The notes under the pieces: generated by a model
The model's input: only the letters and a program-made list of their open reading frames with translations
What the model was told of the DNA's origin: nothing
Databases searched by the model: none
Made by a program: the position numbers and the translations under genes
Source of the DNA: an uncultured Desulfatiglans sp.
GTDB taxonomy: Bacteria; Desulfobacterota; DSM-4660; Desulfatiglandales; HGW-15
DNA length: 59,449 bases
Direction: 5' to 3'
Assembly (NCBI GenBank): GCA_964610475.1
Contig: CAZSZQ010000002.1
Span: 1-59,449 of the forward strand
Shown: positions 19,361-46,367 of the stretch, one piece after another
Numbering within the stretch: position 1 is the stretch's first letter
Layout of the letters: each line of letters starts with the position of its first letter

Positions 19361-21685
19361 CTAATTCTTTTTTCTCCATATTACACCATCAGCCGTATCT
19401 GTTACTTCAACTCCTTTTATTTTCAGGAGTTCATCACGGATACGGTCAGATGTTTCCCAGTCCTTTGCCCTCCGTGCCTCTTCTCTTTTATTAATAAGTT
19501 CGATTACTTCCTTGTCGGATATGTTTGCTTCCAGATCAAATACCGCAATTATAGAATTTATTTCATTAAGGCATGCGATGATCTTTTGTCTGTCACTCAG
19601 AGAAAGGCCGCTGTTGTCCATGATAATGTTTAATTTATTCATAAATATAAATACCGCAGCAAGTGCAGGCGCAGTATTCAGGTCATCATCCATGAAATCA
19701 TTAAAGGTGCTCCTTAGATCATAAATATGCTGATCTATATCCAGATTGGATTCAGTTGTATTGCAGCCGTATAATCTCGCAATAAACTTATCCATATTTG
19801 AAAGGGTCTTTTTTGCTGTATCCAGTTTTTTCCATGAGAAACTCATCGGCTTTCTGTAGTGACTGCATAAAAGCCAGTATCTTATTTCTCTGCCGCTGTA
19901 TCCTTTTTTAAGTATACTTTTTATGTGATAGGACGAATCACTTACCTGAGATGACTTTTTACCATCTATCATCACAAGTTCGTTATGAAGCCAGTATCTG
20001 GCAGGGGATTTTCCTGTGACAGCTTTTCCTATGGCAATTGTATTTTCATGATGTGGAAATACAAGGTCTATTCCGCTTGTGTGGATATCATAGGTTTCAC
20101 CAAGATATTTCATAGACATCGCAGGGCATTCGAGGTGCCAGCTCGGTCTGATATTTCCCCACTTTGTCTGGTAAAAGATACCCTTTTTTAGCTCATTAAG
20201 TGTTGATCTTTTTAAAAGGGTAAAATCCCTGGGGTTATCCTTTTCATACTGTTCAAGATCAACTGTTTTACCGAGTTTTATCTTGTTAAGATCAATACGG
20301 CTGAGTTTGCCGTACTCCCTGAATCTGGCTATATTGAAATACAGTGACCTGAATTTTTCATATGCATATCCCTTTTCAAGGAGTTGACCGGCGAGCTCTA
20401 TCATATCATCAATATGTTCGGATGCCTTAGGGTATGCAGCAGCCCTTTTTATTCTTAAGATATCAAGGTCTTCCATGAATTCATTATAAAAGCCTTCCGT
20501 AAATTCCTTTAAGGGTTTTCCAGCCTTTTCGGCCCCCTGAATGGTTCTGTCATCAAGGTCGGTAACATTCAGTATATGGGTAACTTCAAACCCCTTTGTT
20601 TCGAGATAACGTCGCAGGAGGTCGGAAAAAACAAATCTCCTGCATTCACCTATATTAATGGGCTGGGCAAGGGTAGGGCCGCATGTATAAATCCTGACCC
20701 TGTTTTTATCAAGCGGGGTAAACTCCTCTTTTTTCCTGGTTACAGTATTATACAGGAGCTGGCCTGTTATTTTTTTATCTTCAAACAGGGCAGTACTGAG
20801 GTACCGTTCTCCACCGTCTGGAATAATAACAACGATAGTCCCCCTGTCCATTTCTTTCGCCACCCTTATTGCAGCAGCCATAGCAGCACCTGAACTCATG
20901 CCGCAGAAAATTCCCTCCTTTTTGGCAAGGAGCCGGGATGTCTGATATGCTTCTTCATCATCCACCCTTATAATACGGTCTACCCTGTTCTTGTCATATA
21001 TCCCAGGAGTATATGATTCCTTCATGTTTTTTAGCCCCTGTATCTTGTGACCAAGATAAGGTTCCATAGCTATTATCTGTATTTTACTGTCAAGTTCCTT
21101 TAACCGTCGCGATAATCCCATCAATGTTCCGCTGGTACCAAGGGATGCTACAACTGCATCTAATTCATGGTTGGTCTGTTCCCATATCTCCAGTGCAGTA
21201 CTGTTATAATGAGCCTTCCAGTTGGATTCATTATTGTACTGGTCAGCGAGCCAGTAATTTTCAGGCTCTTTCCTGATCAGGTCGTATACAAATTCTATAG
21301 CTCCATCCGTTGAAAGGTGTGGAGGTGTAAATTTGAGTTCCGCTCCCATGGCCCGGAGGATCTTTTTTCTCTCTTCGCTTACTGCTTCAGACATCACAAG
21401 CATAATCCTGTAACCTTTGACTGCCGCAACCATGGCAAGGCCTATACCCGTATTGCCGCTTGTGGCCTCAAGGATAGTCTTGTTTTTAGTCAGTTCGCCG
21501 TTTTTTTCGGCATCTTCAATCATTTGGAGTGCGGGGCGGTCTTTTACCGACCCGCCGGGGTTAAAGGATTCAAGCTTTGCCAGAATTTTAACATTTTTAT
21601 TGGGATTGAGCCTGTTAACGGGAATGACAGGTGTGTTTCCAATAAGATCAAGGATATTATCCGGTGTTTTATATACGTTATCCAT
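19361..21685 (-). CDS. fusion protein: intact CysK/CysM-type PLP cysteine synthase + full-length cysteinyl-tRNA synthetase-like body with degenerate HIGH and KMSKS motifs
   Basis: N-half has PLP lysine SVKDR, TSGNTG loop and GTSGT. C-half aligns to CysRS (YTCGPT, WHLECPAMSMKYLGETYDIHTSGIDLVFPHHEN, C-terminal EARRAKDWETSDRIRDEL). HIGH reads NIGE and KMSKS reads GKKSS. Confidence 0.8.
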   Translation of the reverse strand: MDNVYKTPDNILDLIGNTPVIPVNRLNPNKNVKILAKLESFNPGGSVKDRPALQMIEDAEKNGELTKNKTILEATSGNTGIGLAMVAAVKGYRIMLVMSEAVSEERKKILRAMGAELKFTPPHLSTDGAIEFVYDLIRKEPENYWLADQYNNESNWKAHYNSTALEIWEQTNHELDAVVASLGTSGTLMGLSRRLKELDSKIQIIAMEPYLGHKIQGLKNMKESYTPGIYDKNRVDRIIRVDDEEAYQTSRLLAKKEGIFCGMSSGAAMAAAIRVAKEMDRGTIVVIIPDGGERYLSTALFEDKKITGQLLYNTVTRKKEEFTPLDKNRVRIYTCGPTLAQPINIGECRRFVFSDLLRRYLETKGFEVTHILNVTDLDDRTIQGAEKAGKPLKEFTEGFYNEFMEDLDILRIKRAAAYPKASEHIDDMIELAGQLLEKGYAYEKFRSLYFNIARFREYGKLSRIDLNKIKLGKTVDLEQYEKDNPRDFTLLKRSTLNELKKGIFYQTKWGNIRPSWHLECPAMSMKYLGETYDIHTSGIDLVFPHHENTIAIGKAVTGKSPARYWLHNELVMIDGKKSSQVSDSSYHIKSILKKGYSGREIRYWLLCSHYRKPMSFSWKKLDTAKKTLSNMDKFIARLYGCNTTESNLDIDQHIYDLRSTFNDFMDDDLNTAPALAAVFIFMNKLNIIMDNSGLSLSDRQKIIACLNEINSIIAVFDLEANISDKEVIELINKREEARRAKDWETSDRIRDELLKIKGVEVTDTADGVIWRKKN

Positions 21686-24312: not shown

Positions 24313-26040
24313 GTGAAATGGAGGCGCAAATTGACTAGAAAGATTTTTTCTATAATGTTAACTATTTTTTTCATTGCTGCCTGTTCGACACAAGATTCTA
24401 CGGAAAAAAATCCGGGAGTTTCAATACCAGTTGCTCCGCAAAATAAAATCAGTGTGTTGAATCCGACTCCGCCCAGTAAAATGGTTGATCGCATACCGCT
24501 TACACCAAGGCTCGATACGCTTGAAGGTAAGACGATATTCCTGGTGGATATCGGTTGGGGAGGTGCCCAGGCGGCTCCCAGCATTTATGAGGAAATGAAA
24601 GCCTGGTTTGGCCAGAATATGCCGAGTGTGAAGATAGAAATCCGAAAAATAAAGGGCTTTTACATGCAGGATCAGCCGGAACTCCTTAAGGAGATATCCG
24701 AAAAGGGTAATGCCGCCATGTTCGGCATTGCAGGCTGAGACAGCTGTACATCGGCCGTGAGCCGAAATTGTCAACAACTGGAACAGCAGTACAATATCCC
24801 CACTGTCGGGGGTTCTGCAGCCAATATTATCGATTATGCCATTAATTACAACTTCAAGTATACAAACGGATCACCTATCAGGTATATAGCCTTTCCTTTC
24901 CCGGTAGCGGGTCAGCCCCAATCTGTCCATCATAAATATATCTTTGAGAGCAATGATGTGGTAAGCGGTAAACCCATGATGCAGGCATTTATAGATGCAT
25001 TGACTGCTCCTCTTACCGAGAAAGAGAAATACAAAGGGCCGGTGCCTGAGGCTGAAATCGCACAAGAACCAGGCGAACCACACCTTATCGGGCCGGACAC
25101 CGAAGAGAACCTGCAACAGCTTTTCATAGATAAAGATTGGACAGACTATCTGCCGATTGTCCTTCCGACCGAGGAAAGGGTGGCAAAGATGCTTGAAGGC
25201 ACTACCCGCAAACCCGAAGAGGTTATAAAGGTATTGGACTGGCCCGGCGGCAGACGGGAGGTTACTGTAGAAAGGGTGGCAACATGCGCTGTTATGTCAG
25301 GAGCCAGGCCGGAACATCTTCCTGTAATCCTTGCACTGGCCAACCATATACCCTTTGGAAATTCAACCTCTTCCATGGCCAACATGATCCTGGTCAACGG
25401 TCCCATACGGGATGAAATAGGTATGAATTACGGCCACAACGTTATGGGACCCCATAATCTGGCCAACTCGGTTATAGGCCGCAGTTACACGATAATGTCA
25501 AAAACCATCGGTGGACTGCACAGTAAAAAGACAACCTGGAGCACCCTTGGGAGCACCATGCAGTACAACAATGTCTGCATCGCAGAAAATGAGGAGGCGC
25601 TGCCGGAAGGTTGGAAACCTTTTCACGTGCAGGCGGGGTTTAAACCAAATGATAGTGTTTTAACCGTGGCAACCGGGTGGTCATACATCTCATGCGTAAC
25701 AGAGGCCCAGAGGGAGTATCCGGTATATATGTGGATGGGCGACCTGATGAAAGCCCTTACTATGCCAAGACCCACGGTCATTATGGATCCTTCTGTTGCA
25801 AAACTTTTGAAGGATACCTATAAATATGATACCAAAGAGCAGCTTGCTAAGTGGTTTGCAGAAAATGTTGAAAAGATAAGGCAACCCTCAGGTGAGGTGA
25901 CGAAGCCCTTCCAGGAGGCATCAATTAATATAATCGTTACCGGTGGCGGCGGCCAGACAACATGGTTTGTGACGGATTTCGGGCTGAGCCGGAATATGGT
26001 TACGCAGGGAGGAAGTACACTCATAGACGACTGGAGGTAG
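24313..26040 (+). CDS. paralog 1: UxxC (UDSC) selenoprotein N-module fused to a conserved C-module of unknown function; predicted lipoprotein; TGA 24736-24738 read as Sec
   Basis: Track ORFs 24313-24738 and 24757-26040 share a frame, separated only by a TGA and 6 sense codons. The downstream piece has no SD. Likely true start is TTG 24331, 6 nt after GGAGG, giving MTRKIFSIMLTIFFIAAC (lipobox IAAC). Homologous along its length to 32997-34754. Confidence 0.8.
24741..24780 (+). promoter_or_regulatory. SECIS-like stem-loop downstream of UGA (paralog 1)
   Basis: Apical hairpin TCGGC-CGTGA-GCCGA (24751-24765) begins 12 nt after the UGA. Outer helix CAGCTGT (24741-24747) / ACAACTG (24774-24780) pairs 6 of 7. 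Confidence 0.6.
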
Positions 26041-27842: not shown

Positions 27843-29015
27843 ATGACTGAAAAAAAGGTGGTGATGCCTGAAACGACAATCTCTCAGGAAATGATAGAGA
27901 ATATGCGCGCTAAACTGGGCCTTAAGTTAAGAGTTGACGATAGCACTCATAATGAGTACGCCACTCGAATGGCAATCCTGAAATTCACTGAAGGCATAGG
28001 AGATCCGAATCCTTTATGGACCGATGAAGAGTATGCAAATAAAAGCCGGTTTGGCAGTATCATCGCACCTCCGTCCTTCGTATGGGCATGTTTTGCTCAT
28101 GTAATGTTCGGGTGGAGAGGGCTTGGAGGTTTTCATGCAGGATGCGATGTGGAATTCATAAAGCCGATATTCATAGGTGACAAAATATCAGCAGAGTGTA
28201 TATTTAAAAGTTTTGATGGACCTAAAGAAAGCAGCTACGCTGATGAAACCGTAATAGATCATTTTGAGAATCAATATTGGAACCAAAATGGAGATTTGAT
28301 TGCAAGGTATCATTGGTGGGTAGTTCATTTTGCCAGGGGAAAAGCGCGGAAGAAAAAGAAGTTTACAGACCTTGAATTGCCACACCCGTGGACTGAGGAC
28401 CAATTACAGCAAATCGAGCAGGAAATTCTTTCTGAGAAAATCAGGGGTTCCAAACCTCGCTATTGGGAGGATGTTGAAATTGGCGATGAGTTTGGCCCGG
28501 TAATAAAGGGACCCCTTGGTGTAACTGATGAGATAGCTTATATCATTGGTGGCGGGGTACCTATTCCGAGATTGCAGGCCCATGGTGTTGCTCTGCAATC
28601 CTATAAAAAACACCCTGCCTGGATGTTCCGTGATCCTAATACCATGGGATACGAGCCGATCTTTGCTGTTCATTATAATAAATCAGCGGCAAACGCAATG
28701 GGGCTTCCACAGCCCTATGATATAGGTATGCAGAGGCATTGCTGGGGTGTACATTTAATAACAAACTGGATGGGAGATGATGCCTGGCTAAAGAGAAGTT
28801 ATACGGAATATAAAAAGTTTGTATATTTATCGGATGTGGTCCGGTTAAAAGGTAAAGTTGTAGACAAATTTATTGATGACGAAGGGGACTATTGCGTGCG
28901 TGTCGATAGATTTACCATAAATCAAAGGAATGAAAACGTGATGCCAGGTTATGCAATTGTTGCTCTTCCCTCAAAAATTGAAAAGTCGTCTCCCCTGGAT
29001 AGAAGAATAACTTAA
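27843..29015 (+). CDS. double hot-dog MaoC-like acyl dehydratase / enoyl-CoA hydratase
   Basis: 390 aa with an N-terminal MaoC-N-like segment (FTEGIGDPNPLWTDEEYA...IAPPSF) and a second hot-dog half. RBS aagagg. Family-level call only. Confidence 0.55.
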   Translation: MTEKKVVMPETTISQEMIENMRAKLGLKLRVDDSTHNEYATRMAILKFTEGIGDPNPLWTDEEYANKSRFGSIIAPPSFVWACFAHVMFGWRGLGGFHAGCDVEFIKPIFIGDKISAECIFKSFDGPKESSYADETVIDHFENQYWNQNGDLIARYHWWVVHFARGKARKKKKFTDLELPHPWTEDQLQQIEQEILSEKIRGSKPRYWEDVEIGDEFGPVIKGPLGVTDEIAYIIGGGVPIPRLQAHGVALQSYKKHPAWMFRDPNTMGYEPIFAVHYNKSAANAMGLPQPYDIGMQRHCWGVHLITNWMGDDAWLKRSYTEYKKFVYLSDVVRLKGKVVDKFIDDEGDYCVRVDRFTINQRNENVMPGYAIVALPSKIEKSSPLDRRIT

Positions 29016-31300: not shown

Positions 31301-32344
31301 TTACTCCTCTATCTTTTTGGTCACAACACCTGTTCGTATGGCATAGGTTGGACAGAAGAGAGTATGTTTACCTGCCCCACCAGCGACCACAACAATTAGA
31401 TCCTCAGGCTTCTGGATTACAGGGATCAGATCTTCTTCCCCATAAGAGGTAAACTGCAGCTCCTGATGCTTTTTCGAATAATTTTTTTTCGGGATTCGTG
31501 CATTCCTGTGGATGTATTCCTTTAATTGTGCCTTTGAATAGCCGCCGTTCGCTATGATACGGGCGTGTTCAGGAGCGGGAATGAGAAGCGGCTCACCGCT
31601 CTGGTAGAGAATGTTATTATTGCCCTGGGTTGCGATGGATGCAGCATAGGTCACGAGCAGATTCTCGGCATCATCAGCCGTATGATCATTGATATTGTGC
31701 GGATTTTCTACCCCATTCACAGTGACCACGCTGTCGGTCTTTTCATACCCCATCTCCACGTGGAGAGGCTCCCACGGATTTTCTTCCTCGTTTTCTGCGA
31801 TGCAGAAAGAGTACTTGCTTGGTTGTCCATGAGTGGAAAGATCGAAGGTTCCCGGGAGACCTCCTCCTATATTAAGAAGTATGAGGCGCACAGCCCTTCC
31901 AATAGTGGCGTTAGCCCGGTTCGCCGGGCCAAATAGATTACATCCACAGTTCATACCTATGCTATGCCGGATAGGACCGTTTACAATAACAATTGGCGCT
32001 ACGGGATGGGTTGTTGCCTGAATGTTATGTAGCCCGAGAGAGGGTTCCGCCAGGGCCTGTACTGCCGCCACAAGAACAGGCATATATTCGGGGAGACATC
32101 CTGCCATTACAGCATTGATAGCTACAAGACTCACTGTGGCATCGTTCCCGGAGGGGGGTAGAATGCCGAGAACTTCTTCGGGATTCTTTTTGGTCCCCTT
32201 GAGCATTCTGGTCACTCGCTCCTCCGTAGGAGGGATTACAGGTAACCCGTCAGTCCATCCACGCTCGTGATAGATGTTATAGATCTCTTCCGGGTTATCG
32301 GGAACTTCCAGCATATTTATATTAAATTTTCCGCTATCTGTCAT
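31301..32344 (-). CDS. paralog 3, C-module as a stand-alone protein (conserved domain of unknown function)
   Basis: Aligns with the C-terminal roughly 350 aa of 24313-26040 and 32997-34754. Shared motifs: GWTDGLPVIPPTEERV, INAVMAGCLPEYMPVL, NGPIR, ANATIGRA, CIAENEEE. RBS AGGAGA. Confidence 0.75.
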   Translation of the reverse strand: MTDSGKFNINMLEVPDNPEEIYNIYHERGWTDGLPVIPPTEERVTRMLKGTKKNPEEVLGILPPSGNDATVSLVAINAVMAGCLPEYMPVLVAAVQALAEPSLGLHNIQATTHPVAPIVIVNGPIRHSIGMNCGCNLFGPANRANATIGRAVRLILLNIGGGLPGTFDLSTHGQPSKYSFCIAENEEENPWEPLHVEMGYEKTDSVVTVNGVENPHNINDHTADDAENLLVTYAASIATQGNNNILYQSGEPLLIPAPEHARIIANGGYSKAQLKEYIHRNARIPKKNYSKKHQELQFTSYGEEDLIPVIQKPEDLIVVVAGGAGKHTLFCPTYAIRTGVVTKKIEE

Positions 32345-32382: not shown

Positions 32383-32952
32383 TTATCGGGCCCCCTGAGC
32401 ATTAGCATTTCCAACATTTCCAACAAGAGTGCAGATAATTTCTTTAATGGCGCCATCTGCCTTTTTAATGATCTCCGTGTCATTATTGAGGGCGATGGGG
32501 TGGGTTACGACGACGAGTGGCATGTCGGTTAACCTTTTTGCCTTGGCTGTAGTCCTCAGAAGGGCCGAAAAGCTTGTGGTGCAGACTGTTGTGGTAGGAA
32601 GGTTTCTCTTTTCGAGTTCAATGGAACTCTGGATACACCAGAGCGAACATCCCCCTCAATCTCCGGTGCCGATGACTGCACCATCACAGGTAGTAACGAT
32701 ATGATCAACAACTTCCGGCTCAATTACTTTTTTGGTGTCTCCTCTGTCACTTATCCATTCAATTCCTGACACTCCATATTGATCAGTGAGCAGTTCAGAG
32801 ACTCTTTTAAGAAAAATGTCACCTCCCAGTTTCCCGTTCCAGATTACAGCAAGCCGTTTCCCCTGGAGTGAGGTGAGACGCATGGCTGCCGCCACAGACT
32901 TTTTGACTCTCTTTACTCCAGTGGGAATATACACCATTATCTTTTCACCCAT
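32383..32952 (-). CDS. paralog 3, N-module: 189-aa UxxC (UGGC) selenoprotein; TGA 32656-32658 read as Sec
   Basis: Track ORF stops at TGA after ...AVIGTGD. The frame stays open for 90 more codons (GGCSLWCIQSSIELEKRNLP...) to TAA 32383-32385, and that extension is homologous to the post-Sec region of paralog 2. Otherwise 270 nt would be unexplained. RBS AGGAGG before ATG 32952. Confidence 0.75.
32627..32643 (-). promoter_or_regulatory. SECIS-like hairpin downstream of UGA (paralog 3)
   Basis: mRNA CUCUGG-UGUAU-CCAGAG, a perfect 6-bp stem starting 12 nt after the UGA. Confidence 0.6.
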
Positions 32953-32996: not shown

Positions 32997-34754
32997 TCAT
33001 CTCATTTTTACCACCTTTAATTTCTCAGTCCAGTCCACCGGAAGCTCAATACGCTTACTTGTAGTATAACCCAGACACCCGTTGCTGATAAATATATGAG
33101 CATTTGTTCTCCAGGGATCTCCGCTGACAGTGATTACGAAATCATCAGGCGAGCATACAATCGGCACCAGTCGATCAGGATCTTCAGACTCACAGAACTG
33201 TGGTCCAAGTACCCCTTCCTCTACATAATCGCAGAGTGAGACATGGTCAGGAGCAAAATTTGTCCATCCCCAGTTTAACTTTTCAACTTTCCATGCGGGT
33301 ATTCTAGCGTGATCATAAAGGTACTGTTTTACATCTTTTTTCGACCAGCCGCCTTTTGCGATTGTTTCGGCCAGCACGGGAGTAAGTATGAGATGAGGTC
33401 TTTGACTGCAGCCGATTGCAGGTCTGGGAAGGACCGTAAACCATATCTCCCATCCCATATAGCCGGTAAAACGGTCGGCGATATAGGTAAGTATTTCTTC
33501 CGGCTTCTGTCCGTATGCCCCGGTAATTACTCCTCCGCTGACATGTCTTGCTACGGTTACAACATTTTCACCTGCCTTAAAGCCCTGGTCAACACTCAGG
33601 GGATGCCATCCTATGCGTGCAATTGTGTCTTCATTCTCGGCCAGGACCACTTTCCATGTACCGCCAAAGGTCGCCATATCAGTTTGATGAAGATGAAATC
33701 CGGCTACATTCCTTAACATGAGTCTCCAGAAACGACCTATTGTTGTGTTCGCCTGAAATCCGTCACGCAATGCCCCCTGTTCGTAATTGAAGTCAAGCTC
33801 TTTAATTATGGGACCATTGAGGGTGATCAGCGTTTCCGAGCCGGGAGTATTGCCGCTGTGCTCAACACCATATTGCGGATCTGCCATTGCCTCCGTAAGA
33901 GCAATAAGCACCGGCATATATTCCGGTCTGCATCCGGCCATTACTCCGTTTACAGCGGTATTCCATATGGTTGCCTGTCGGCTGTCAGGAAGTAAAACCC
34001 CGATCACTTCCTTGGGTGCCCTGTCCGTAAAGGACATGAACCGTTCAACATTTTCCAGTGTCGGAGGAATAATCGGCAAAGAATCGTTCCACCCTCTGGA
34101 TAAAAAGAATCTGTTTACCTCTTCATATGAACCCTCAAAAACGATGCTTTCAAAAGTTGGCTCAGGTCTCTCTTTCTTGAGCAAAGGTACCTGCCCGGTC
34201 AACCCCTCAATAACTAAAGGTAATGTAGTGGTTTCGATGTTTGTCTTCAATTCTTCCGGGGTCTGTGTGTCAACATGACCGGGTATCATGGCAATAGCCA
34301 TATTGGGAAATCCGACGCCGCTCGCGACTGCCTGAGCACCCCTAACAAAGGATTCACAGATTAGAGGCACAACCGGAACACCGGCTTTTTCTACCACTGC
34401 ACTCGCCCGCATCACGGCAGACGTACAGCTTCCTCAGCATCCCACTGCTGATATTACTGCATCACAACCATATTTCTCCAGCCTGGCCGGTAACTCAGCC
34501 AGTACCTTTGCTTCATCTTTGTCATGAATATTTCCGAAATTATCATAGCTGACGAATTTGAGCTCTGAAAATTCCTTTGATAACCGGTCCTGAATTATCT
34601 TAAAAATACTGTCACCACGGAATACATAGTCCCATAACAGACCGACTGTCTTTCCGTTGAGTGTATCGAGGCGTTTTGAGATGCTTGTCGCTTTTATTGT
34701 TTTTTTCCCTTTGGGCCAGACCACCTTGTAGATACCTTTATTGGCCGCTTCCAT
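32997..34754 (-). CDS. paralog 2: UGSC selenoprotein N-module fused to the conserved C-module (585 aa); TGA 34434-34436 read as Sec
   Basis: Track ORFs 34434-34754 and 32997-34415 share a frame (339 nt offset), separated by a TGA and 6 sense codons. Junction reads AVISAVGC-U-GSCTSAVMRAS. No SD precedes the downstream piece. RBS GGGAGG before ATG 34754. Confidence 0.8.
34404..34423 (-). promoter_or_regulatory. SECIS-like hairpin downstream of UGA (paralog 2)
   Basis: mRNA CGUCUGC-CGUGAU-GCGGGCG, 7 bp including two G:U pairs, starting 10 nt after the UGA. Loop CGUGA(U) matches the paralog 1 loop CGUGA. Confidence 0.55.
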
Positions 34755-34877
34755 TCGAATCGCCTCCCGTATTTCTTATTTCATGTGATTCATGAGATGC
34801 TTTTGCTGCTTTTTTCTATGACGTTTATAACCTCAATCTTTAAGTGCATCTTAATCCGGAGAAGACTGTTTTAATTA

Positions 34878-35816
34878 TTAATTTGAATTTTTGTTTAAAG
34901 TCTGTAGGAATCTTTGCGCCGCCACTGCGGCGATAGCCCCGTCGCCCACTGCTGCAGATATCTGCTGGGGAGAATACTGCCGCAGGTCACCAGCCGCAAA
35001 TATACCCGGAACAGTTGTCTCCATATTTTGATTTATTTCAATTCGGCCTGAGGCATCGAGGGGCACAATACCATCGAAATAGGCCGTATTAGGCACAATC
35101 CCGATATGAACTAGGACTCCCTCTACCTGGAGAGTCTCTTTTTGGGATGTGCCGATATCTTCCAGTACAATACCTTTTACATTATTTTCGCCTGTAATCT
35201 CAATAACCTTTTGCCCGCGGCGAATCTCGATTTTTGGGTCGAAAGCTGCTCTTTCCTGATAGATTGGTGTGGCGGTCAGATTAGGCAGGGCTTCTATAAT
35301 TATTACTTTTGATGCAAGTTTGGACATATAAAGCGCCTCGGTTATACCTGCGTCTCCTCCTCCGCATACGGCCAGCACGCGGTTTTCGAACTGTCCCCCT
35401 TCACAGAGCGCACAATGTATCACGCCCCGCCCGTAAAATTTATCTTCGCCCGGAACATTCAGTTTTCTTGATGATGATCCACAGGCTATGATTATGGCCA
35501 TTGAAGTGTAATTTGTTCCATTTTTACATTTTACATTGAAGCAACTGGAATATGAAGCAATGTCCGTCACTTCACCCTGTTCCAGTTCTACATCATATTT
35601 CATGGCCTGACCTATCATCTCGGTGGCGAGTGCTGTCCCTTCTATTCCTTCGGAAAAACCGGGATAATTTTCAACCCAGGCGATATTCAGCAACTGCCCG
35701 CCAAACTGATCTTTTTCCACTAATAAAACCCGGTATTTGGCCCTGGCCAGATAAATACCGGCGGTTATTCCGGATGGCCCTGCTCCAATAATAATTACAT
35801 CGTAATCTGTTACCAC
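34878..35816 (-). CDS. thioredoxin-disulfide reductase-like FAD/NAD(P)H flavoprotein
   Basis: GAGPSG FAD motif; GGQL...ENYPGF; redox-active CALCEG (canonical TrxB has CATCDG); second dinucleotide motif GGGDAG; GDLR near the C-terminus; 312 aa. Confidence 0.85.
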   Translation of the reverse strand: MVTDYDVIIIGAGPSGITAGIYLARAKYRVLLVEKDQFGGQLLNIAWVENYPGFSEGIEGTALATEMIGQAMKYDVELEQGEVTDIASYSSCFNVKCKNGTNYTSMAIIIACGSSSRKLNVPGEDKFYGRGVIHCALCEGGQFENRVLAVCGGGDAGITEALYMSKLASKVIIIEALPNLTATPIYQERAAFDPKIEIRRGQKVIEITGENNVKGIVLEDIGTSQKETLQVEGVLVHIGIVPNTAYFDGIVPLDASGRIEINQNMETTVPGIFAAGDLRQYSPQQISAAVGDGAIAAVAAQRFLQTLNKNSN

Positions 35817-35878: not shown

Positions 35879-37438
35879 TTACTCTTTTTTATCAATAAGT
35901 TCTTTGCAATTTTTCTTTAGTATTGCTTTATCGATTTTTCCCACTGCATTTTTAGGTAACTCGTCTAAAAAATCTATGGACCGGGGTTTTTTATACCCGG
36001 CCAACCGGGAGGCGCAAAACTCCATCAGTTCTTTTTCGCCTATTTTATCTCTAAATTCCGTCTCCAGTGCGATAACCGCCTTTACTGATTCTCCCCATTC
36101 CCTGTCCGGTATGCCTATAACAGCAGCTTCATAGACTGCGGGGTGCTGGTATAACACCTCTTCAACCTCTCTGGTTGAAACATTTTCTCCCCCGCTGATT
36201 ATTATGTCTTTTTTCCTATCAACAATAAAGATATAACCGTCCTGGTCCCTGTAGCCTATATCACCCGTATAAAGCCAGCCATCTTTAAAGGTTTCTGCCG
36301 ATTCCTTGGGCAACTTCCAATAGGACCGGGCGATGTTATCGCCCTTACCCGTAATTTCGCCAATCTGCCCATCAGGGACTTCCTTTCCTTCCATATCAAC
36401 AATAGCAATTTCAACGCCCATGGCATCTTTTCCTACTGAACCGAGTTTTTCTGCCATAGTACCTTCAAGGGAGTGTTCACTACTGCGGAAATGAAGGAGG
36501 GCGCCATTAGCTTCAGTAGCACCCAGACCTGTTGTAAGCCGGTGAGATCCAAGAATTTTCATAGCTGCTTTAAGCTGTTCTTTGGGAATCGGAGCCCCTG
36601 CGTACATGATGAGTCTAATGCTTTCAAGATTATAGGATGATATATTGGGATCAGAGATAATTCTCCCGAGTACTGTTGGGACCAGGTTGATAAATGTAAT
36701 TTTTCTATTTTGTATAATTTTATACATCGGATCCAGATCGAATCTGGGCATCAGGACAGTCGTACCTCCCCGGTAAACCATACTCAACATGGGCCATAAC
36801 CCGCCAAGGTGGAAGAGCGGCATTGCAAGAAGACTGATATCTTCAGGAACAAGATCCAGTTCAAGGCACATCGTGTTGGTATTTGCCATTATGTTCCGAT
36901 GTGTTGATATAACGCCCCTTGGAAAGCCCGTGGCTCCGCTTGTGAACATAATCATGGCCATATCATCGGGCTCTACTGTTACAAGGGGTTCAGAATCTGA
37001 AGCACTTGAGATAAGATCTTCATAGGAGAGCACATTATCTCCGTAATTTCCCGTTGATATGTAATGGTTGATCCCGGCAATGTTCTTCCGTATTTTTTGA
37101 ACAGTTGCTTCCATTTCTTTGTCATAGATAAGAAGAGTCACTTCAGCATTTCTGAGAACATAGGATGCTTCATCACCGGAGAAGCGTGCATTTACCGGAA
37201 CGGCGATTGAACCGATCTTTGCAATGGCAAAATAGAATTCTATGAAATGGTGGGAGTTGTATCCCATAAAGGCTATCTTATCACCCTTGGTTATTCCTAT
37301 CCCCAGAAGGGCATTTGCCAGCCTGTTAACTCTTTGATTAATTTCTCGATAATTATACTCTTTTTCTCCGTCAATAACCGCTACCTTCCGGTTGCGAATC
37401 CTCGCTTCTCTAAGTATTATGTCACCGATCAGCATCAT
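35879..37438 (-). CDS. AMP-forming acyl-CoA ligase (adenylate-forming superfamily)
   Basis: AMP-binding motif FTSGATGFPRG; YGATE-like GLGATE; TGDIGYRDQDGY; C-terminal LPKNAVGKIDK. Confidence 0.85.
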   Translation of the reverse strand: MMLIGDIILREARIRNRKVAVIDGEKEYNYREINQRVNRLANALLGIGITKGDKIAFMGYNSHHFIEFYFAIAKIGSIAVPVNARFSGDEASYVLRNAEVTLLIYDKEMEATVQKIRKNIAGINHYISTGNYGDNVLSYEDLISSASDSEPLVTVEPDDMAMIMFTSGATGFPRGVISTHRNIMANTNTMCLELDLVPEDISLLAMPLFHLGGLWPMLSMVYRGGTTVLMPRFDLDPMYKIIQNRKITFINLVPTVLGRIISDPNISSYNLESIRLIMYAGAPIPKEQLKAAMKILGSHRLTTGLGATEANGALLHFRSSEHSLEGTMAEKLGSVGKDAMGVEIAIVDMEGKEVPDGQIGEITGKGDNIARSYWKLPKESAETFKDGWLYTGDIGYRDQDGYIFIVDRKKDIIISGGENVSTREVEEVLYQHPAVYEAAVIGIPDREWGESVKAVIALETEFRDKIGEKELMEFCASRLAGYKKPRSIDFLDELPKNAVGKIDKAILKKNCKELIDKKE

Positions 37439-37487
37439 TTTCTATTTCCAGTTTTTTTGACTGTTGATATATAATTCCAGTCCTGTT

Positions 37488-39053
37488 TTATTGACTTAAA
37501 GCCTTTAATTCCTTTTCCCGTTCCTTGAGGAGTTTTCTCTTGATTTTCCCATCCGGTGTTTTTGGCAGATCTGCTATGAAATCGATTTCCCGCGGATACT
37601 CGTGTTTGCTCAGTCTGGTTTTCACAAAAGCCTTGATTTCTTCTTCAAGATCTTCAGATTCTGTATAGCCTTTTTTGAGTACGATGATGGCCTTGACAAC
37701 TTCACCCCTGTTTTTATCAGGACTCCCGACGACGGCGCATTCTTCAACAGCAGGATGTTTGTTAATAGCTCCTTCTACCTCAATAGGGCCAATGGTATAG
37801 CCGGCTGAGATAATAACATCATCAATTCTTCCCACATACCATAAATATCCGTCTTCATCGATATAAGCGCTATCACCTATCTTGAACCATGCATTATTTC
37901 TCCAGAGGGCAACCTGACCGGTCGTTCCGGGAGGAACTTCTTTTTCGTTTTCATCAAGGATGGCTATTTTGATACCACCTAACATTAATTTACCTAAACT
38001 TCCCGGTTTAATAACCCAATTGTCAAAGGCCATGAAATCAAGGGCAATAGGACCTGCCTCAGTGGTACCATACTGAGCCGCAGGATAAATGCCCCATTCA
38101 CGGTGAAGGGCAGCAACTGTATCCTTTGTCATGGCTTCGCCCGTATAATTGATTGTCCTGAGCCTGACTTTGTATTTATCAACATTTGGAGATTCCATAA
38201 TGAGGCGGTAATGAGAGGAAATGGCTGCCATAATTGTAACTCCCCATTCCTCCAGGGCTTCAAGTACCATGTCCGTATCGAACTTGCCGGAAAAAGTACC
38301 AAGTGCCCTCCCATGGATAAGAGGAGCTATGGTGCCATACCATATACCGTGTCCCCAGCCGGGTGATGAAGGACAGAAATAAATGTCATCAGGTCTAAGT
38401 CCATTTCCGAGTTTCATGACCACTCCTGCGACTGAGATAGCACCATGTTTGTAAAGGATGGATTTTGGCTCTCCGGTAGTGCCGCTCGAAAATTGCATCA
38501 TGCAGACGGTGTTTACATCTGTTTTCCATTCATAGCTGTCGGAACACTTCGATAACTCTTCCATAAGGTCATCTGCATAAATAATCCTGAGGCCAAGTTT
38601 CTCGGCAAGCTCCTTATCAATATTTTTTGTCATGGCCTTTGTTGTTATAATTGCCTTTGCATTTGATCTTAAAAGTCTGAAATTTATTGCTTCCGGCCCA
38701 AAAAGAGGAAAACACATTACAGCTACTGCCCCTCTTCTGAATGTACCGAACATGCTTATGTAAAGCTCAATGGAGGGGAAGAGCAATATAACAACCTTAT
38801 CTCCTGATTTTATTTCTTTTTCTTGAAGGTAGTTGGCAAAGCGTCGAGTATACTCTGAGAACTGCCCGAATGTATACATTTCCGATCTTCCATCGGAAAA
38901 TTTTATGCGTATCGCAGTTTCATCCTTGGGATGTCGATCAATACATTCATGGGCAATGTTAAAATGCTCTTTTGTGCCGTCAAAAAGGGACCATCTTTCT
39001 TTCCAGTTGAACTTTTCTTTAGCGTCATCGTAGCTGATATAGTCAAGACTCAT
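37488..39053 (-). CDS. AMP-forming acyl-CoA synthetase (medium-chain/acetyl-CoA-synthetase-like)
   Basis: FSSGTTGEPK; QYGTTE; GDSAYIDEDGY; LPKTPDGKIKR. Confidence 0.85.
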   Translation of the reverse strand: MSLDYISYDDAKEKFNWKERWSLFDGTKEHFNIAHECIDRHPKDETAIRIKFSDGRSEMYTFGQFSEYTRRFANYLQEKEIKSGDKVVILLFPSIELYISMFGTFRRGAVAVMCFPLFGPEAINFRLLRSNAKAIITTKAMTKNIDKELAEKLGLRIIYADDLMEELSKCSDSYEWKTDVNTVCMMQFSSGTTGEPKSILYKHGAISVAGVVMKLGNGLRPDDIYFCPSSPGWGHGIWYGTIAPLIHGRALGTFSGKFDTDMVLEALEEWGVTIMAAISSHYRLIMESPNVDKYKVRLRTINYTGEAMTKDTVAALHREWGIYPAAQYGTTEAGPIALDFMAFDNWVIKPGSLGKLMLGGIKIAILDENEKEVPPGTTGQVALWRNNAWFKIGDSAYIDEDGYLWYVGRIDDVIISAGYTIGPIEVEGAINKHPAVEECAVVGSPDKNRGEVVKAIIVLKKGYTESEDLEEEIKAFVKTRLSKHEYPREIDFIADLPKTPDGKIKRKLLKEREKELKALSQ

Positions 39054-41215: not shown

Positions 41216-41716
41216 ATGAAGCATCTTATCCGATTAAAGGTGAATGGTGACACCTATACTGTCGCGTGTGAGTCATCCCGCACTCTTAATGAGGTCCTTA
41301 GAGAAGACCTTGGTTTGACAGGCACCAAGCTGGGATGCAGTGACGGGGACTGCGGGGCCTGCACTGTTATGATTGATGGGAATTCTGTCAGTTCATGCCT
41401 GACACTGGCTGCATCCTGTGAAGGAAAGGAAATAACCACAGTAGAAGGGCTGGCAAGATCAGGGGAGGAGCTGCATCCCATACAGGAAGCCTTTATAGAA
41501 AAAGGGGCAATTCAGTGCGGTTTCTGTACAGCCGGGATGGAGATGTCGGCCTTGAATCTGTTGAGTAAAAACAGTTCACCCACAGAAGAGGAAATCCGGA
41601 CAGCAATATCCGGAAACCTTTGCCGGTGCACAGGTTACTATAAAATAGTTGAGGCAATAGACAGTGCTGCTGAAAAAATTAGAAAGAAACAAAAAAAAAT
41701 TAAGAAGAGGATATAA
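41216..41716 (+). CDS. molybdenum hydroxylase small subunit, two [2Fe-2S] clusters (CoxS/XdhC-type)
   Basis: GCSDGDCGACTV; QCGFCTAGM; CRCTGY. Confidence 0.9.
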   Translation: MKHLIRLKVNGDTYTVACESSRTLNEVLREDLGLTGTKLGCSDGDCGACTVMIDGNSVSSCLTLAASCEGKEITTVEGLARSGEELHPIQEAFIEKGAIQCGFCTAGMEMSALNLLSKNSSPTEEEIRTAISGNLCRCTGYYKIVEAIDSAAEKIRKKQKKIKKRI

Positions 41717-41719
41717 AAA

Positions 41720-42592
41720 ATGGGTCTTTCCAGATTTGATTACTATGCTCCTGAAACAATAAAAGAGGCATGTAAACTGGCCTCTGAAATGGGTAAAGGC
41801 GCAATGTTTATGGCCGGTGGCACCGATCTTTTAATAAAAATCAAAAGAAAGCTGCTCAAAGCCACGGCTGTTATTGATATAAAAAAAATAAAAGGGCTGG
41901 ACGAAATATCCTTTGACAGGAGAAAAGGGCTCACGATCGGCTCTGCAGTAACTCTAACAGCAATCGAAAACCATACTCTGATAAAGGAAAAATATCCTGC
42001 CATAGCTGATGCAGCACATGCTACAGCCAATGTCCAGATTAGAAACATGGCGTCAATTTCAGGGAACCTTTGCAATGCCGCTCCATCGGCGGAAAACGCC
42101 CCGGTTCTAATGGCTATGAGTGCGCATGTAATGCTTGCTTCTCAGGACGGAACAAGGTCATTGCCGCTGGATGGATTTTTTAAGGGCCCTGGTAAAACAG
42201 TTATAAAACAGGGTGAGATCCTTACATCGATTACCGTGCCTGTGCCTCCCAATGGCTCAGGAACTTCATACCAGCATATATCCGCCAGGAGCAAGGTGGA
42301 TATCTCCGCGGTCAATGTCGGCGCCATGCTTATCATGTATGGCGATATCTGCGAGGATGCAAGGATATTCCTGGGCGCTGTTGCCCCCACTCCCATGATG
42401 GCAAAAAACGCACAAAAGGTCCTGAAGGGCAAAAAATTAACCGAGGAACTCCTTCAGACAGCAGGTTTAGAGGCGTCCAAAGAATGCAGTCCCATTACAG
42501 ATATGCGTGCAACTGCTGAATATAGAAGACTCATGGTTGCAGTTTTAACTGGTAGAGCAATTGATGAATCAAGAAGCAGGGCTGCAAGGTAA
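41720..42592 (+). CDS. molybdenum hydroxylase FAD-binding medium subunit (CoxM-type)
   Basis: FAD_binding_5 motif MAGGTDLL; C-terminal CO-dehydrogenase flavoprotein domain (TDMRATAEYR). Confidence 0.85.
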   Translation: MGLSRFDYYAPETIKEACKLASEMGKGAMFMAGGTDLLIKIKRKLLKATAVIDIKKIKGLDEISFDRRKGLTIGSAVTLTAIENHTLIKEKYPAIADAAHATANVQIRNMASISGNLCNAAPSAENAPVLMAMSAHVMLASQDGTRSLPLDGFFKGPGKTVIKQGEILTSITVPVPPNGSGTSYQHISARSKVDISAVNVGAMLIMYGDICEDARIFLGAVAPTPMMAKNAQKVLKGKKLTEELLQTAGLEASKECSPITDMRATAEYRRLMVAVLTGRAIDESRSRAAR

Positions 42593-42627
42593 ATCATGCT
42601 CTGGATTAATGAAGGGAAAGGAAAACA

Positions 42628-44898
42628 ATGGATAAATACAATATAATCGGTAAAAGTGTACCACGTACTCATGTTAAGGATAAGGCAACAGGCGCTGCAC
42701 TCTATACAGATGATATGAAGCTCCCCGGCATGCTGCATGGTCGGCTTCTCAGGAGTCCTTATGCCCATGCGCGTATCCTGAATATCGATACCAGTAAAGC
42801 AGAAGCACTCCCCGGAGTAAAGTGTGTGATTACAGGAGCAGATCTTCCTGATATAAGCTTCGGAAACTGGCGTCTTTTTCCGGATACACAGGATGAGCAT
42901 GGACTGGAAAAGAAGAAGGTCAGGTTTATTGGTGATGAAGTAGCGGCAGTTGCTGCAATTGATAAGGATATTGCCGAAGAGGCCCTGGACCTCATAAAAG
43001 TTGATTATGAAGAACTCCCGGCTTCATTTAACCTTGATGCGTCACTTGCTGACGGAGCACCTGTAATTCACGATCTACATAAGAATAATATCAGCGTTGT
43101 AAGAAAAATTACTTACGGTGATCTGGATAAGGCATTTGATGAATGTGATTATATAAGGGAAGATACTTTTAATGTACACGAGGTCAGTGCATGCTATCTG
43201 GAACCTTGCTCTACATTGGCTAAATGTGATGCAGATGGGAAGATAACAATCTGGACATCAACACAAGTTCCATACATTGTTCAATGCCTTCTGGCAAGCG
43301 TGCTGGGGATGAGAGAGAATGACATAAGGGTCATAAAACCGAATGTCGGTGGTGGATTCGGTGCAAAAATGGAGATGCGGAAGTGGGAAGTCTGCGCCGC
43401 TTTCATGGCCAGAAAGACCGGAAAACCTGTCAAATTCACACTCTCGCGGGAAGAAGAGTTTGCTACAGGCAGAAGAAGACATCCCATGAGGCTATTCTCT
43501 AAAATTGGACTCAAGAAGGATGGAACACTTATAGCCAAGGACTTAAAAATCCTGCTTGACGGAGGCGCCTATAACGCCATGGGACCAACAGCCACATTTC
43601 TGTGCGGTAATTGTGGTCTTATGATGTATCGTTATAAAAGTTATAGATTCCTCGGACAGCATGTATACACCAATAAGCCTCCTGCAAGCGCGATAAGAGG
43701 ATTTGGTTCTCCCCAGTCATATTTTGCTACGGAATCACAGATGAACATTGTTGCTGAAGAGCTTGGTATTGACCCCATTGAATTAAGAAAAAAGAACGCA
43801 ATGAAAGCGGGTGATGAAATCCCTGAGCTTTCCAGAATAGGAAGCTGTGGTTTTTCTGAATGCCTTGATAAAGTAGTGAAAGAAAGCGGATTTCATGAAA
43901 AAAGAAAAAATCCTAAAAAAGGCAGGGGAATAGGTATAGGATGCTACAGTTATATTTCCGGAGGTGTCTTTAACTGGTTTAATACCCAGTATCCATTCTC
44001 TGCTGCTGAAATAAGGGCGTTTTCTGACGGTACAGTCCACTTGTTGACCATGGCTGCTGATATAGGGCAGGGATCGGATACTGTCCTTCCACAAATCTTG
44101 GCTGAAGAACTGGGTATTAAGATGGAGGACATAAGGATAACTTCCGCTGATACGGCTATGACACCTCAGGCCGACCTGGGTTCATGGGGCAGCAGAGTAA
44201 CACTCATGGCAGGTAACGCTGTAATTGATGCAGCAAGAAAACTCAAAGAGATCCTTTTTGGTGTGGTCGCCGCCCACTTTAAATTTAATATTATTCACGA
44301 ACTTGACTTCAAAGACGGACGTATATTCTCACAGGTCAGACCCGATAAAGGTATGACTTTTAGTGAAGCAGTAGAACTTGCACAAAGGACACAGAGAGGG
44401 GAACCAATTGTAGTAAGGGGATTCTATACCCCAAGAGGAAAAGGTATGGTAACACCGGCTTTCAGTTTCGGTGCCCAGGTAGCTGAAGTGGAAGTGGATG
44501 AAAAGACCGGCATTGTGGATGTTAAAAAGGTATGGACTGCCCATGACTGCGGAAAAGTCCTAAATCCTGTTTCTGTTGAAGGTCAACTCGAAGGATCAAT
44601 ACATATGGGCCTCGGTTATGCACTTTCCGAACAGTTTGCCATGGAGGATGGCAAAACCCTTAACACGACTTTCCTAGACTATAAAATGCCGAGTGCCCTT
44701 GATATGCCTGCGAGTAAATCGATTTGTATTGATGTTTACGAACCGGAAGGGCCGTTCGGTGCCAAGGAAGCAGGAGAAGGTCTTGTAGGCCCTGTTGCTC
44801 CGGCGATTGCTGACGCAGTTTACAATGCGGTCGGTTACCGAAACAAAGATCTTCCCATTTCTCCTGAAAAGGTGTTGAAGGACATAAAAAATAAATAG
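42628..44898 (+). CDS. molybdopterin-binding large subunit of the xanthine dehydrogenase / aldehyde oxidoreductase family
   Basis: GRLLRSPYAHARI; VGGGFGAK; AIRGFG; catalytic-Glu region FGAKEAGEG. Substrate is not inferable. Confidence 0.9.
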   Translation: MDKYNIIGKSVPRTHVKDKATGAALYTDDMKLPGMLHGRLLRSPYAHARILNIDTSKAEALPGVKCVITGADLPDISFGNWRLFPDTQDEHGLEKKKVRFIGDEVAAVAAIDKDIAEEALDLIKVDYEELPASFNLDASLADGAPVIHDLHKNNISVVRKITYGDLDKAFDECDYIREDTFNVHEVSACYLEPCSTLAKCDADGKITIWTSTQVPYIVQCLLASVLGMRENDIRVIKPNVGGGFGAKMEMRKWEVCAAFMARKTGKPVKFTLSREEEFATGRRRHPMRLFSKIGLKKDGTLIAKDLKILLDGGAYNAMGPTATFLCGNCGLMMYRYKSYRFLGQHVYTNKPPASAIRGFGSPQSYFATESQMNIVAEELGIDPIELRKKNAMKAGDEIPELSRIGSCGFSECLDKVVKESGFHEKRKNPKKGRGIGIGCYSYISGGVFNWFNTQYPFSAAEIRAFSDGTVHLLTMAADIGQGSDTVLPQILAEELGIKMEDIRITSADTAMTPQADLGSWGSRVTLMAGNAVIDAARKLKEILFGVVAAHFKFNIIHELDFKDGRIFSQVRPDKGMTFSEAVELAQRTQRGEPIVVRGFYTPRGKGMVTPAFSFGAQVAEVEVDEKTGIVDVKKVWTAHDCGKVLNPVSVEGQLEGSIHMGLGYALSEQFAMEDGKTLNTTFLDYKMPSALDMPASKSICIDVYEPEGPFGAKEAGEGLVGPVAPAIADAVYNAVGYRNKDLPISPEKVLKDIKNK

Positions 44899-44909
44899 GA
44901 GGATAATTA

Positions 44910-46367
44910 ATGAATCTGAAAGTAAGGCTCTCCGGGATTGTAGGAGAGAACAATTATTCCGATGACAAAGAGCAGTTGAAGGTATACTCCCGCGATTTCA
45001 GTTACGCCCCTTCAGGTATGCCCAACTATATTGTAAAACCGGCAAGTTCTGAAGAGGTCTCTGCTGTTGTCAAATTGTGTAATGAATTCAGGGTGCCTGT
45101 TGTGCCATGCAGTTCAAAGCTCCATTTTTATGGCGCCACCATCCCGAAAGAAGGTGGCGTGATGCTTGATTTGAGCCGGATGGATAAAATTTTTGAGATA
45201 GACCCTGATAACAGAAGGGTAAGGTTTGAGGCTGGCGTTACATGGCAGAAACTTACAGAGGAATTGGAAAAGGCCGGATACAGGGTTATCATGCCTCTTG
45301 CTCCGCCGGCAGAGCGTTCTGTTCTTACCGATTTTCTGGAGCGTGAGGAACCTACAAACCAGGTTTATGATTACGGTGAGCCCCTTCAGGCAATGGAGGT
45401 CGTATGGCCAACAGGCGAGATATTCAGGATGGGGTCGGCCAGTGTAAACGGCTATCCTGATTCTGCCTCAAAGGGCGGAAACCCGTCCGGGCCGGGGCTC
45501 GACTTTTACAGATTTTTCCAGTGCGCGCAGGGCACAATGGGTGTTGTTACATGGACAAACCTAAAGATAGAATCAATACCTAAAATAGACAAGGTGCTTT
45601 TTGCACCGCTCGATGATATCGAATATGGAATAGATTTCCTTTACCGTATAATGCCCCGCCGGATCGGTCAGGAGGTCCTGCTACTGAATGATGTTGATCT
45701 GGCTGCAATCCTCTCTGAAAAATGGCCGGACGATTTTAACAGGCTCAGTGCGGAACTCCCGCCATGGACGCTTGTTCTGGTTATAAGCGGTCTTTTAAGG
45801 CGCCCTGAAGAAAAGATCGCCTATGAGGAGCATTTTCTGGCAGACTTAATAAAGAATGAATTTACTGATCTTCGTCTCGAAGAAAATCTTCCTGGCTTTT
45901 CCGGCATAAGAAAAAAAATGCTTAATGTCCTGAGAAAGCCCTGGCCAAAGGATCTCCCTTACTGGAAAAGCAGGGTCAAGGGGGCGTGTCAGAATCTTTT
46001 CTTCCACACACGCCCTGAAAGGGTGCCTGAATTTATATCAATTATTGAGGATATTTCAACGCAGTACGGATACCCGATAGATGAAATAGGTATGTATATT
46101 CAGCCGATAGAACATAACAGGGCATGCAGGCCGGAATTCTCATTTTTCTATAATCCTGAAAATGAAGGTGAAACTGCGGTTATAGCTGATCTTTACAAAG
46201 AGGCCGCCAGGGTATTTCTAAATGAGGGAGCTGTTTTTTCCAGACCGTATGGCGACCTGGCACCTATTGTATATGAAAAGGCCGCTTCCTATGCCTTCGC
46301 ATTAAAAAGGCTTAAGAAGACCTTTGATCCAAACAATATAATGAACCCTGGAAGGCTGTGCTTTTAA
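44910..46367 (+). CDS. FAD-binding (PCMH-type, GlcD/GlcE-like) oxidoreductase
   Basis: N-terminal FAD_binding_4-like segment (IVKPASSEEVSAVVKLCNEFRVPVVP ... LDLSRMDKIFEIDP); divergent glycine-rich loop. Confidence 0.65.
   Translation: MNLKVRLSGIVGENNYSDDKEQLKVYSRDFSYAPSGMPNYIVKPASSEEVSAVVKLCNEFRVPVVPCSSKLHFYGATIPKEGGVMLDLSRMDKIFEIDPDNRRVRFEAGVTWQKLTEELEKAGYRVIMPLAPPAERSVLTDFLEREEPTNQVYDYGEPLQAMEVVWPTGEIFRMGSASVNGYPDSASKGGNPSGPGLDFYRFFQCAQGTMGVVTWTNLKIESIPKIDKVLFAPLDDIEYGIDFLYRIMPRRIGQEVLLLNDVDLAAILSEKWPDDFNRLSAELPPWTLVLVISGLLRRPEEKIAYEEHFLADLIKNEFTDLRLEENLPGFSGIRKKMLNVLRKPWPKDLPYWKSRVKGACQNLFFHTRPERVPEFISIIEDISTQYGYPIDEIGMYIQPIEHNRACRPEFSFFYNPENEGETAVIADLYKEAARVFLNEGAVFSRPYGDLAPIVYEKAASYAFALKRLKKTFDPNNIMNPGRLCF

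Follow-up and report, generated by a model that had tools for sequence, protein, structure and literature searches.

UGSC proteins were listed as selenoproteins in the Sargasso Sea, Olavius and Global Ocean Sampling (GOS) analyses (PMC1976440, PMC2398784), and the family has been known since 2005-2008. The GOS survey found 255 selenocysteine (Sec) versus 21 Cys sequences (PMC2398784), a strong Sec excess that recurs in our data (~87% among the top clusters), and a 'UGSC/Unknown_1' fusion was noted in 2008 by Zhang and Gladyshev (PMC2398784). UGSC proteins are among the most abundant selenoproteins of aquatic metagenomes and are without known function; reviews of 2022 and 2026 assign them none (PMC9312934, PMC13188914). 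Here we analyze a fused UGSC gene on the minus strand (32997..34754) of a 59,449-nucleotide (nt) stretch of DNA, hereafter the window, from an uncultured Desulfatiglans sp. (assembly GCA_964610475.1, contig CAZSZQ010000002.1). As a whole, the locus is best explained as a single gene for a 585-residue UGSC-family selenoprotein, a reading we hold with high confidence. Like other members of the UGSC family, the fused protein has the U-G-S-C motif at the same column; unlike the published family, its subfamily adds a Cys directly before Sec (GCUGSC). The UGSC family and its fused form were already known, and the gene itself, being a misannotated family member, will not surprise a specialist. What is new is the proof of a Sec insertion sequence (SECIS) by comparing synonymous sites in Sec and Cys forms, the prediction of a non-thioredoxin fold, the size and orphan status of the family of the C-terminal domain (X), and the linkage and fusions among UGSC, X and a TrxB-like flavoprotein.

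The gene and its coding landmarks are:

32997..34754, minus strand: complete fused UGSC gene, 585 amino acids (aa), from ATG 34754-34752 to a genuine stop, TGA 32999-32997; homologs align over residues 1-580 in one frame

34763..34768, minus strand: Shine-Dalgarno sequence GGGAGG, 8 nt 5' of ATG 34754

34434..34436, minus strand: in-frame UGA, codon 107, read as Sec; TGA in 80/80 relatives and Cys in full-length homologs

34425..34439, minus strand: redox motif Cys106-Sec107-Gly-Ser-Cys110 (G-C-U-G-S-C); [G/A]-C-U-G-S-C is invariant in 80 Sec forms

The original prediction, made from the sequence alone, held that two open reading frames (ORFs) sharing a frame, and separated by a TGA and six codons, are one gene split by conventional gene calling. 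This proved correct. The minus-strand ORFs 34754..34434 (106 aa, ending ...DAVISAVGC) and 34415..32997 (472 aa, GTG start) are in the same frame; between them lie just TGA 34436-34434 (a stop codon whose low end is coordinate 34434) and GGA AGC TGT ACG TCT GCC, after which comes GTG ATG; the public calls do give a 106-aa and a 472-aa product. Joined, the frame encodes 585 aa with TGA as codon 107, and reads M1...G-C106-[TGA107]-G-S-C110-T-S-A-V-M-R-A-S.... The C-U-x-x-C arrangement, with a Cys directly before Sec, is thus present as Cys106-Sec107-x-x-Cys110, and the GGGAGG claimed for ATG 34754 is in place.

Searching 5.8 billion proteins gave 4387 relatives of the fused protein. Among the top 120 clusters, ~104 (~87%) were ~468-aa products starting 'M[L/M]RASA...' just past the Sec position, and the remaining 16 were full-length (555-607 aa). 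At the TGA column the full-length homologs have Cys (GCCGAC, GACGSC, ACCGSC), and rarely Leu or no redox residues. With each species represented by a single genome, a scan yielded at least 575 loci, of which the best 80 (L001-L080) were used for detailed comparisons. These come from at least eight phyla (Alpha-, Beta- and Gammaproteobacteria, Methylomirabilota, Dehalococcoidia, Nitrospinota, Myxococcota, Acidobacteriota, Verrucomicrobiota and Actinomycetota), all align to residues 1-580 in a single frame, and all 80 have TGA at the aligned position, within [G/A]-C-U-G-S-C-T-P-A-V-[L/M]-R-A. Cys-form genes, retrieved by a degenerate pattern, included ~20 true family members of metagenomic origin (L081-L104). 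The Sec/Cys interchange at residue 107 for which the original prediction had proposed a check was therefore found, with TGA in 80/80 relatives and Cys in five full-length homologs (P0009, P0010, P0011, P0016 and P0024) plus the ~20 metagenomic forms. The relatives do not show two separate genes parted by an unconserved linker; rather, conservation within the protein is highest in the six-codon linker GSCT[P/S]A, which is therefore an active-site motif, not a spacer. Relatedly, the residue just before Sec is Cys in 80/80 Sec forms but in only 2/22 loci of the Cys form, where Ala, Ser, His or Asn mostly takes its place, so that in this subfamily the vicinal Cys travels with selenium use. Judged from these alignments, the GCUGSC arrangement is a conserved subfamily trait, not peculiar to the 32997..34754 gene.

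Just beyond the UGA, the RNA has this feature:

34396..34429, minus strand: bacterial SECIS-type hairpin; lower stem nt 8-14/35-41, 2-nt bulge, upper stem nt 15-20/27-32, loop CGUGAU at 34416-34411

The hairpin CGUCUGC-CGUGAU-GCGGGCG was predicted to start 10 nt past the UGA, and does; its stem is longer than first drawn, having a 7-bp lower part (13 bp in total, four of them G·U). The window and its 80 relatives align gap-free over 66 nt from the UGA. In the consensus structure, nt 4/8-14 pair with 35-41/45 to form the lower stem, a 2-nt bulge follows, and nt 15-20 pair with 27-32 in the upper stem, which is capped by the loop CGUG[U/C/A]U; the centroid fold of the window hairpin matches this structure exactly. 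Consensus pairing is satisfied in 81% of alignment cells, versus 29-46% with the partners slid by 1-3 columns. Pair 15-32 switches from G-C to A-U in 15 sequences, and the top five pairs never vary. Because such invariance is ambiguous within a coding region, Sec and Cys forms were compared at synonymous sites. At codons 6-10 after the UGA (P-A-V-L/M-R, covering upper stem and loop), third-position entropy was 0.10, 0, 0, 0 and 0 bit among 78 distinct Sec forms; among 19 distinct Cys forms, whose residues at these codons are the same, it was 1.85, 1.68, 1.61, 1.24 and 1.53 bits. At codons 2-5 and 11-16, the two sets were alike. Mean minimum free energy for nt 4-48 was -23.4 kcal/mol in Sec forms versus -16.1 kcal/mol in Cys forms at equal G+C. 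Third positions are frozen in Sec forms alone, and there is therefore RNA-level selection tied to the UGA, which also answers the fold and covariation check proposed for the hairpin. By this comparison of sequences, the hairpin is a coding-region SECIS that is under selection as RNA only where codon 107 is UGA. The same contrast offers a general, experiment-free way to prove a coding-region SECIS.

The window hairpin keeps all the frozen bases save C18, which is U, still paired with G; this change reflects a Pro to Ser replacement in the window's lineage, and the 86%-identical relative contig L106 has UCC at that place. The claim that the loop matches the CGUGA of a first paralog, which is probably the fused copy at 24313..26040, stood for that copy (UCGGC-CGUGA-GCCGA) but not for the stand-alone copy at 32952..32383, whose loop is UGUAU.

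The N-terminal part of the protein is accounted for by one domain:

34206..34724, minus strand: UGSC domain, residues 11-183, PF24696 (E = 2.3e-34), with predicted flavodoxin/Rossmann-like beta-alpha repeats

With Cys put for the stop, the PF24696 match crosses codon 107 (residues 11-175, E = 3.8e-33, 115.5 bits versus a cutoff of 25); the isolated domain scores 119.4 bits. Against the NF041046 equivalog model, which was built on the short stand-alone UGSC form, the fused protein scores 69.9 bits, below the cutoff of 125, and the stand-alone paralog in the window scores 111.4. On these profile scores, the fused protein is a member of the Pfam PF24696 family and not of the narrow NF041046 equivalog. 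NCBI labels the close homologs P0046, P0089, P0095 and P0104 'UGSC family (seleno)protein'.

For structural insight we used an AlphaFold2 model, not of the window protein but of its 54%-identical Cys homolog P0009 (pLDDT 91, pTM 0.92). The N-domain of the model has five beta-alpha units, with the Cys/Sec site between a strand and the N-terminus of a helix. A Foldseek search of the PDB and BFVD with the full-length model gave no match at E <= 1e-3; the weak matches to the N-domain were flavodoxin-, SIS- or FtsZ-like, with no thioredoxin among them. A sequence search of the PDB with the N-domain likewise found no match. The UGSC domain is thus predicted, from the homolog model, to be flavodoxin-like and not thioredoxin-like. 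The thioredoxin fold proposed earlier for UGSC (PMC2398784) finds no support in the predicted five beta-alpha units or in the Foldseek matches, among which there was no thioredoxin.

The rest of the protein is a domain for which we use the name X, and the window also holds a stand-alone version of it, X':

33000..34124, minus strand: C-terminal X domain, residues ~211-585 (~380 residues), 32% identical to the downstream 347-aa ORF

33930..33932, minus strand: Cys275 in NGVMAGC, the sole X-domain Cys that is invariant across the family (three alignments), equivalent to C83 in the X' family

31301..32344, minus strand: X' gene, a stand-alone 347-aa X paralog (1e-48 to the fused C-domain), last in the operon

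The X domain has many invariant polar residues, and its family comprises 7450 clusters at 50% identity. Neither the C-domain nor X' matched Pfam or NCBIfam, even at E <= 10, and a profile sequence search of the PDB found no relative of X. The best Foldseek match of an X' model was class I fumarate hydratase (E = 1.3e-3, TM 0.25, rmsd 17 Å), a resemblance that may serve as a lead only. The C-domain is likely to be the 'Unknown_1' of 2008, because it is by far the commonest UGSC fusion.

On the minus strand of the window, the gene order is two acyl-CoA ligases, a TrxB-like flavoprotein, fused UGSC-X, a stand-alone UGSC selenoprotein and X'; the order is the same in the 86%-identical relative. 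The neighbors not yet listed are:

34878..35816, minus strand: TrxB-like low-molecular-weight thioredoxin-reductase paralog with a CALC active site (Pyr_redox_2, 5e-49), directly upstream in the same operon

32383..32952, minus strand: stand-alone UGSC selenoprotein, 189 aa, D-U-G-G-C, TGA 32658-32656, with hairpin GCUCUGG-UGUAU-CCAGAGU, directly downstream

35879..39053, minus strand: pair of genes for AMP-forming acyl-CoA synthetases, which head the gene string on this strand; given for context

On TIGR01292 the TrxB-like protein reaches 318.9 bits, just short of the cutoff of 343. Neighbors were counted in the 55 relatives' loci flanked by at least 3 kb on each side. A TrxB-like gene occurs in 37/55, in 33 of them within 2.5 kb, and an X' gene in 30/55, in 26 of them directly downstream of the fused gene on the same strand; 48/55 loci have one or the other. 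The architectures found were X alone, UGSC-X, X-UGSC (with a product that stops at the Sec column), tandem X-X and X-TrxB, the last represented by P0309, which scores 331 bits on TIGR01292. The remaining neighbors differ from locus to locus and are catabolic: TctABC transporters, CoA transferases, CoA ligases, MaoC dehydratase and hydantoinase-like genes. Directly 3' of the fused gene, the stand-alone UGSC gene (32383-32952) and the X' gene (31301-32344) form an unfused version of the UGSC-X pair.

Beyond the single frame, the Sec/Cys interchange, the SECIS constraint, the domain makeup and the gene linkage and fusions, which are read from the sequences, we infer an NAD(P)H-driven selenol/thiol reductase system, including its electron path, catalytic role and substrate. 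With a good ribosome-binding site ahead of it, ATG 34754 serves as the start of translation. At UGA-107, SelB and Sec-tRNA(Sec) would be recruited by the stem-loop that begins 8 nt past the UGA and has its apical loop CGUGAU 18-23 nt past it; Sec would be inserted and translation would continue to the stop at 32997. The TrxB-like flavoprotein, via NAD(P)H and its FAD/CxxC center, would then reduce a UGSC selenenylsulfide (Sec107 with Cys110 or Cys106), and the selenolate formed would act on what X holds, either a substrate or an intermediate bound to Cys275; X itself probably works paired with stand-alone X'. Such a system would be a Sec-dependent reductase in the manner of selenoprotein B of glycine/proline reductase, and the gene context hints at an organic acid or acyl-CoA as substrate.

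Put in full, the proposal is that UGSC, X/X' and a dedicated TrxB-like flavoprotein form a widespread, unrecognized NAD(P)H-driven Sec-dependent reductase, in which X is a new fold or family, the substrate is an imported organic acid or acyl-CoA, and the selenoprotein is a third 'selenoprotein B' type beside those of glycine and proline reductases. We advance this tentatively, as possible but short of probable. Several findings count against it. The TrxB-like linkage is missing in about one third of loci. X has no known fold relative, so that its catalytic role is a guess. Unlike Grd/Prd selenoprotein B, the fused protein scores only 17.5 versus 65.45 on TIGR01918 and 18.7 versus 775 on NF040795, and no gene for the pyruvoyl partner GrdE/PrdA was found among its neighbors in the window or the conserved neighbors of the 80 loci. 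If the proposal is true, the reductase occurs in at least 575 species representatives, with the X domain alone making up 7450 clusters, and its catalytic domain X is at best remotely like class I fumarate hydratase.

The main functional rival is that the selenoprotein serves as a general thiol/selenol antioxidant or redox carrier, like thioredoxin, with X in a structural or regulatory role. The literature groups UGSC with thioredoxin-like redox proteins (PMC2398784, PMC13188914), and the UxxC and GCUG motifs, the linkage to a TrxB-like reductase gene and the occurrence of stand-alone UGSC proteins would all suit such a carrier. The predicted fold, however, is flavodoxin-like, not thioredoxin-like. 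Nor does an accessory role sit well with an X domain that is larger than UGSC, occurs far more widely, shows stronger conservation (many polar residues and one Cys are invariant) and is the module fused to each of the others; the variable neighbors (CoA ligases and transferases, Tct transporters, hydantoinase-like genes) are moreover catabolic. We consider the carrier role rather unlikely. The three components of the proposed reductase are concrete enough for reconstitution in vitro, which makes UGSC function approachable by experiment, and the fusion and neighborhood data tie UGSC to a very large uncharacterized domain family and a private thioredoxin-reductase paralog.

At the level of the gene itself, the alternative is that TGA 34436-34434 is a real stop, so that there are two genuine genes, one for a 106-aa protein and the other for a 472-aa protein whose start is GTG 34415 or ATG 34412. 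This agrees with the mechanical ORF listing and with the public record of the same contig, where the two halves are kept as separate products. It also agrees with the lack of Sec machinery in the window, where no selA, selB, selC or selD was found and ARAGORN detected no tRNA or tRNA-Sec. These absences weigh against the single-selenoprotein reading, as do three other results. Rfam recognized no SECIS or other RNA family, either in the whole window at gathering thresholds or in the local region at E <= 10. The window hairpin alone was not significantly more stable than shuffled sequences (z = -1.3, 23/200), so that its significance comes from the comparative data and not from its own stability. 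Finally, some paralogs (P0064 and two in L106, described below) lack both Sec and Cys, and not every member is therefore redox active. Two separate genes nevertheless remain very improbable. One Pfam domain runs across the supposed stop, the six 'intergenic' codons encode the family's most conserved residues, and the Cys homologs are continuous proteins of 567-607 aa. As had been predicted, no suitably spaced Shine-Dalgarno sequence precedes GTG 34415 of the second ORF; the sole purine run, GAGGAAG, is UGA-GGA-AG itself, 13 nt upstream. The start codon used by gene callers (GTG 34415-34413) falls within the apical loop of the SECIS hairpin, and neither half is predicted from the homolog model to be a complete fold.

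A pseudogene or sequencing error, in which a TGC or TGT Cys codon was mutated or misread as TGA, is scarcely credible: the family does have Cys forms one base change away, but 80/80 independent genomes, as well as the close relatives L106, L107 and L108, share the identical TGA, the hairpin is frozen in Sec forms alone, and the window's two other UGSC genes are likewise interrupted in frame by TGA at the homologous position. Genome-wide reassignment of TGA was also considered and is ruled out, because TGA is an ordinary stop for 5/37 long ORFs in the window, including the fused UGSC gene itself.

With the single selenoprotein gene as the preferred reading, the annotation changes from two 'hypothetical proteins' to one selenoprotein, and two more UGSC genes in the window share the problem. 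As to the Sec machinery of the relatives, selB (TIGR00475) lies beside the gene in 9/80 loci and selA (TIGR00474) in 7/80, both above cutoff. In several Gamma- and Alphaproteobacterial genomes they immediately adjoin the fused UGSC gene (L009 2577-4946; L006 3522-5450), a hint that the fused protein may be the main or only selenoprotein of those genomes.

Further UGSC-X genes were seen in the window and in L106. A third UGSC-X fusion in the window, 24313-26040 on the plus strand, is called as ORFs 24313..24738 and 24757..26040; it has an in-frame TGA (24736-24738) and the motif G-U-D-S-C, followed by the hairpin UCGGC-CGUGA-GCCGA given above, and the Cys of its X domain is replaced (...VMSGARPEH). 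Its N-terminus resembles a lipoprotein signal peptide (LTIFFIAAC followed by STQ), which suggests, from sequence, an exported selenoprotein. The relative contig L106 has two more full-length UGSC-X paralogs, 588-2312 (574 aa) and 14507-16228 (573 aa), in both of which the redox motif is wholly lost (...ISGGST... and ...LTGTSS...); one of them adjoins a MaoC dehydratase, as in the window region 27843-29015. These two paralogs may be non-redox subunits.

Elsewhere too, the window holds many redox genes; its source is a Gram-negative, anaerobe-like bacterium. A DsbD homolog lies at 2590-4329. A 774-aa ORF at 19361-21685 on the minus strand is an unusual fusion of a pyridoxal phosphate-dependent domain (PALP, cysteine-synthase-like) with a class I cysteinyl-tRNA synthetase catalytic domain and DALR. 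A molybdenum enzyme set of the xanthine-dehydrogenase/CO-dehydrogenase type (2Fe-2S, FAD and molybdenum cofactor subunits) occupies 41216-49319 on the plus strand, followed by FAD_binding_4 and CCG-domain (GlpC/HdrD-like) proteins.

Several known systems invite comparison. The E. coli SECIS spacing rule places the upper stem-loop from 11 nt past the UGA, as here. The mammalian thioredoxin reductase has a C-terminal Gly-Cys-Sec-Gly redox center, whose likeness to the fused protein in GCUG is a lead only. By analogy, the adjacent Cys and Sec of the fused protein could form a vicinal selenenylsulfide. Unlike that of the mammalian enzyme, the UGSC motif is internal, at a strand-helix junction of a flavodoxin-like domain, with a second Cys in UxxC spacing, and there is no homology between the fused protein and the thioredoxin reductase C-terminus. 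As in the E. coli-type SECIS (fdhF/fdnG; the bSECISearch model cited in PMC9312934), the hairpin is located in the coding region directly 3' of the UGA, and has a small apical loop with G-U and a bulge beneath the upper stem. Unlike the E. coli type, its sequence is family-specific (CCCGC-CGUGNU-GCGGG), and it fits no Rfam model.

The glycine and proline reductases are the nearest functional parallel. Membership in the GrdB/PrdB family was rejected, the scores being far under the cutoffs and no Grd/Prd gene cluster being present: the fused protein did not match PF07355, even at E <= 10, no GrdA/C/D genes were found nearby, and none of the Grd or Prd subunits is related to the partner domain X. 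The Grd system needs an electron supply of the thioredoxin-reductase type, a need that the proposed reductase would share. Residues 70-169 of the fused protein, around Sec, have weak co-linear hidden Markov model similarity to GrdB/GrdH/PrdB (E = 7e-4 and 1.6e-3), and both have a UxxC motif (Table 2 of PMC2398784). By analogy, and without homology, the proposed reductase logic would resemble that of the glycine and proline reductases.

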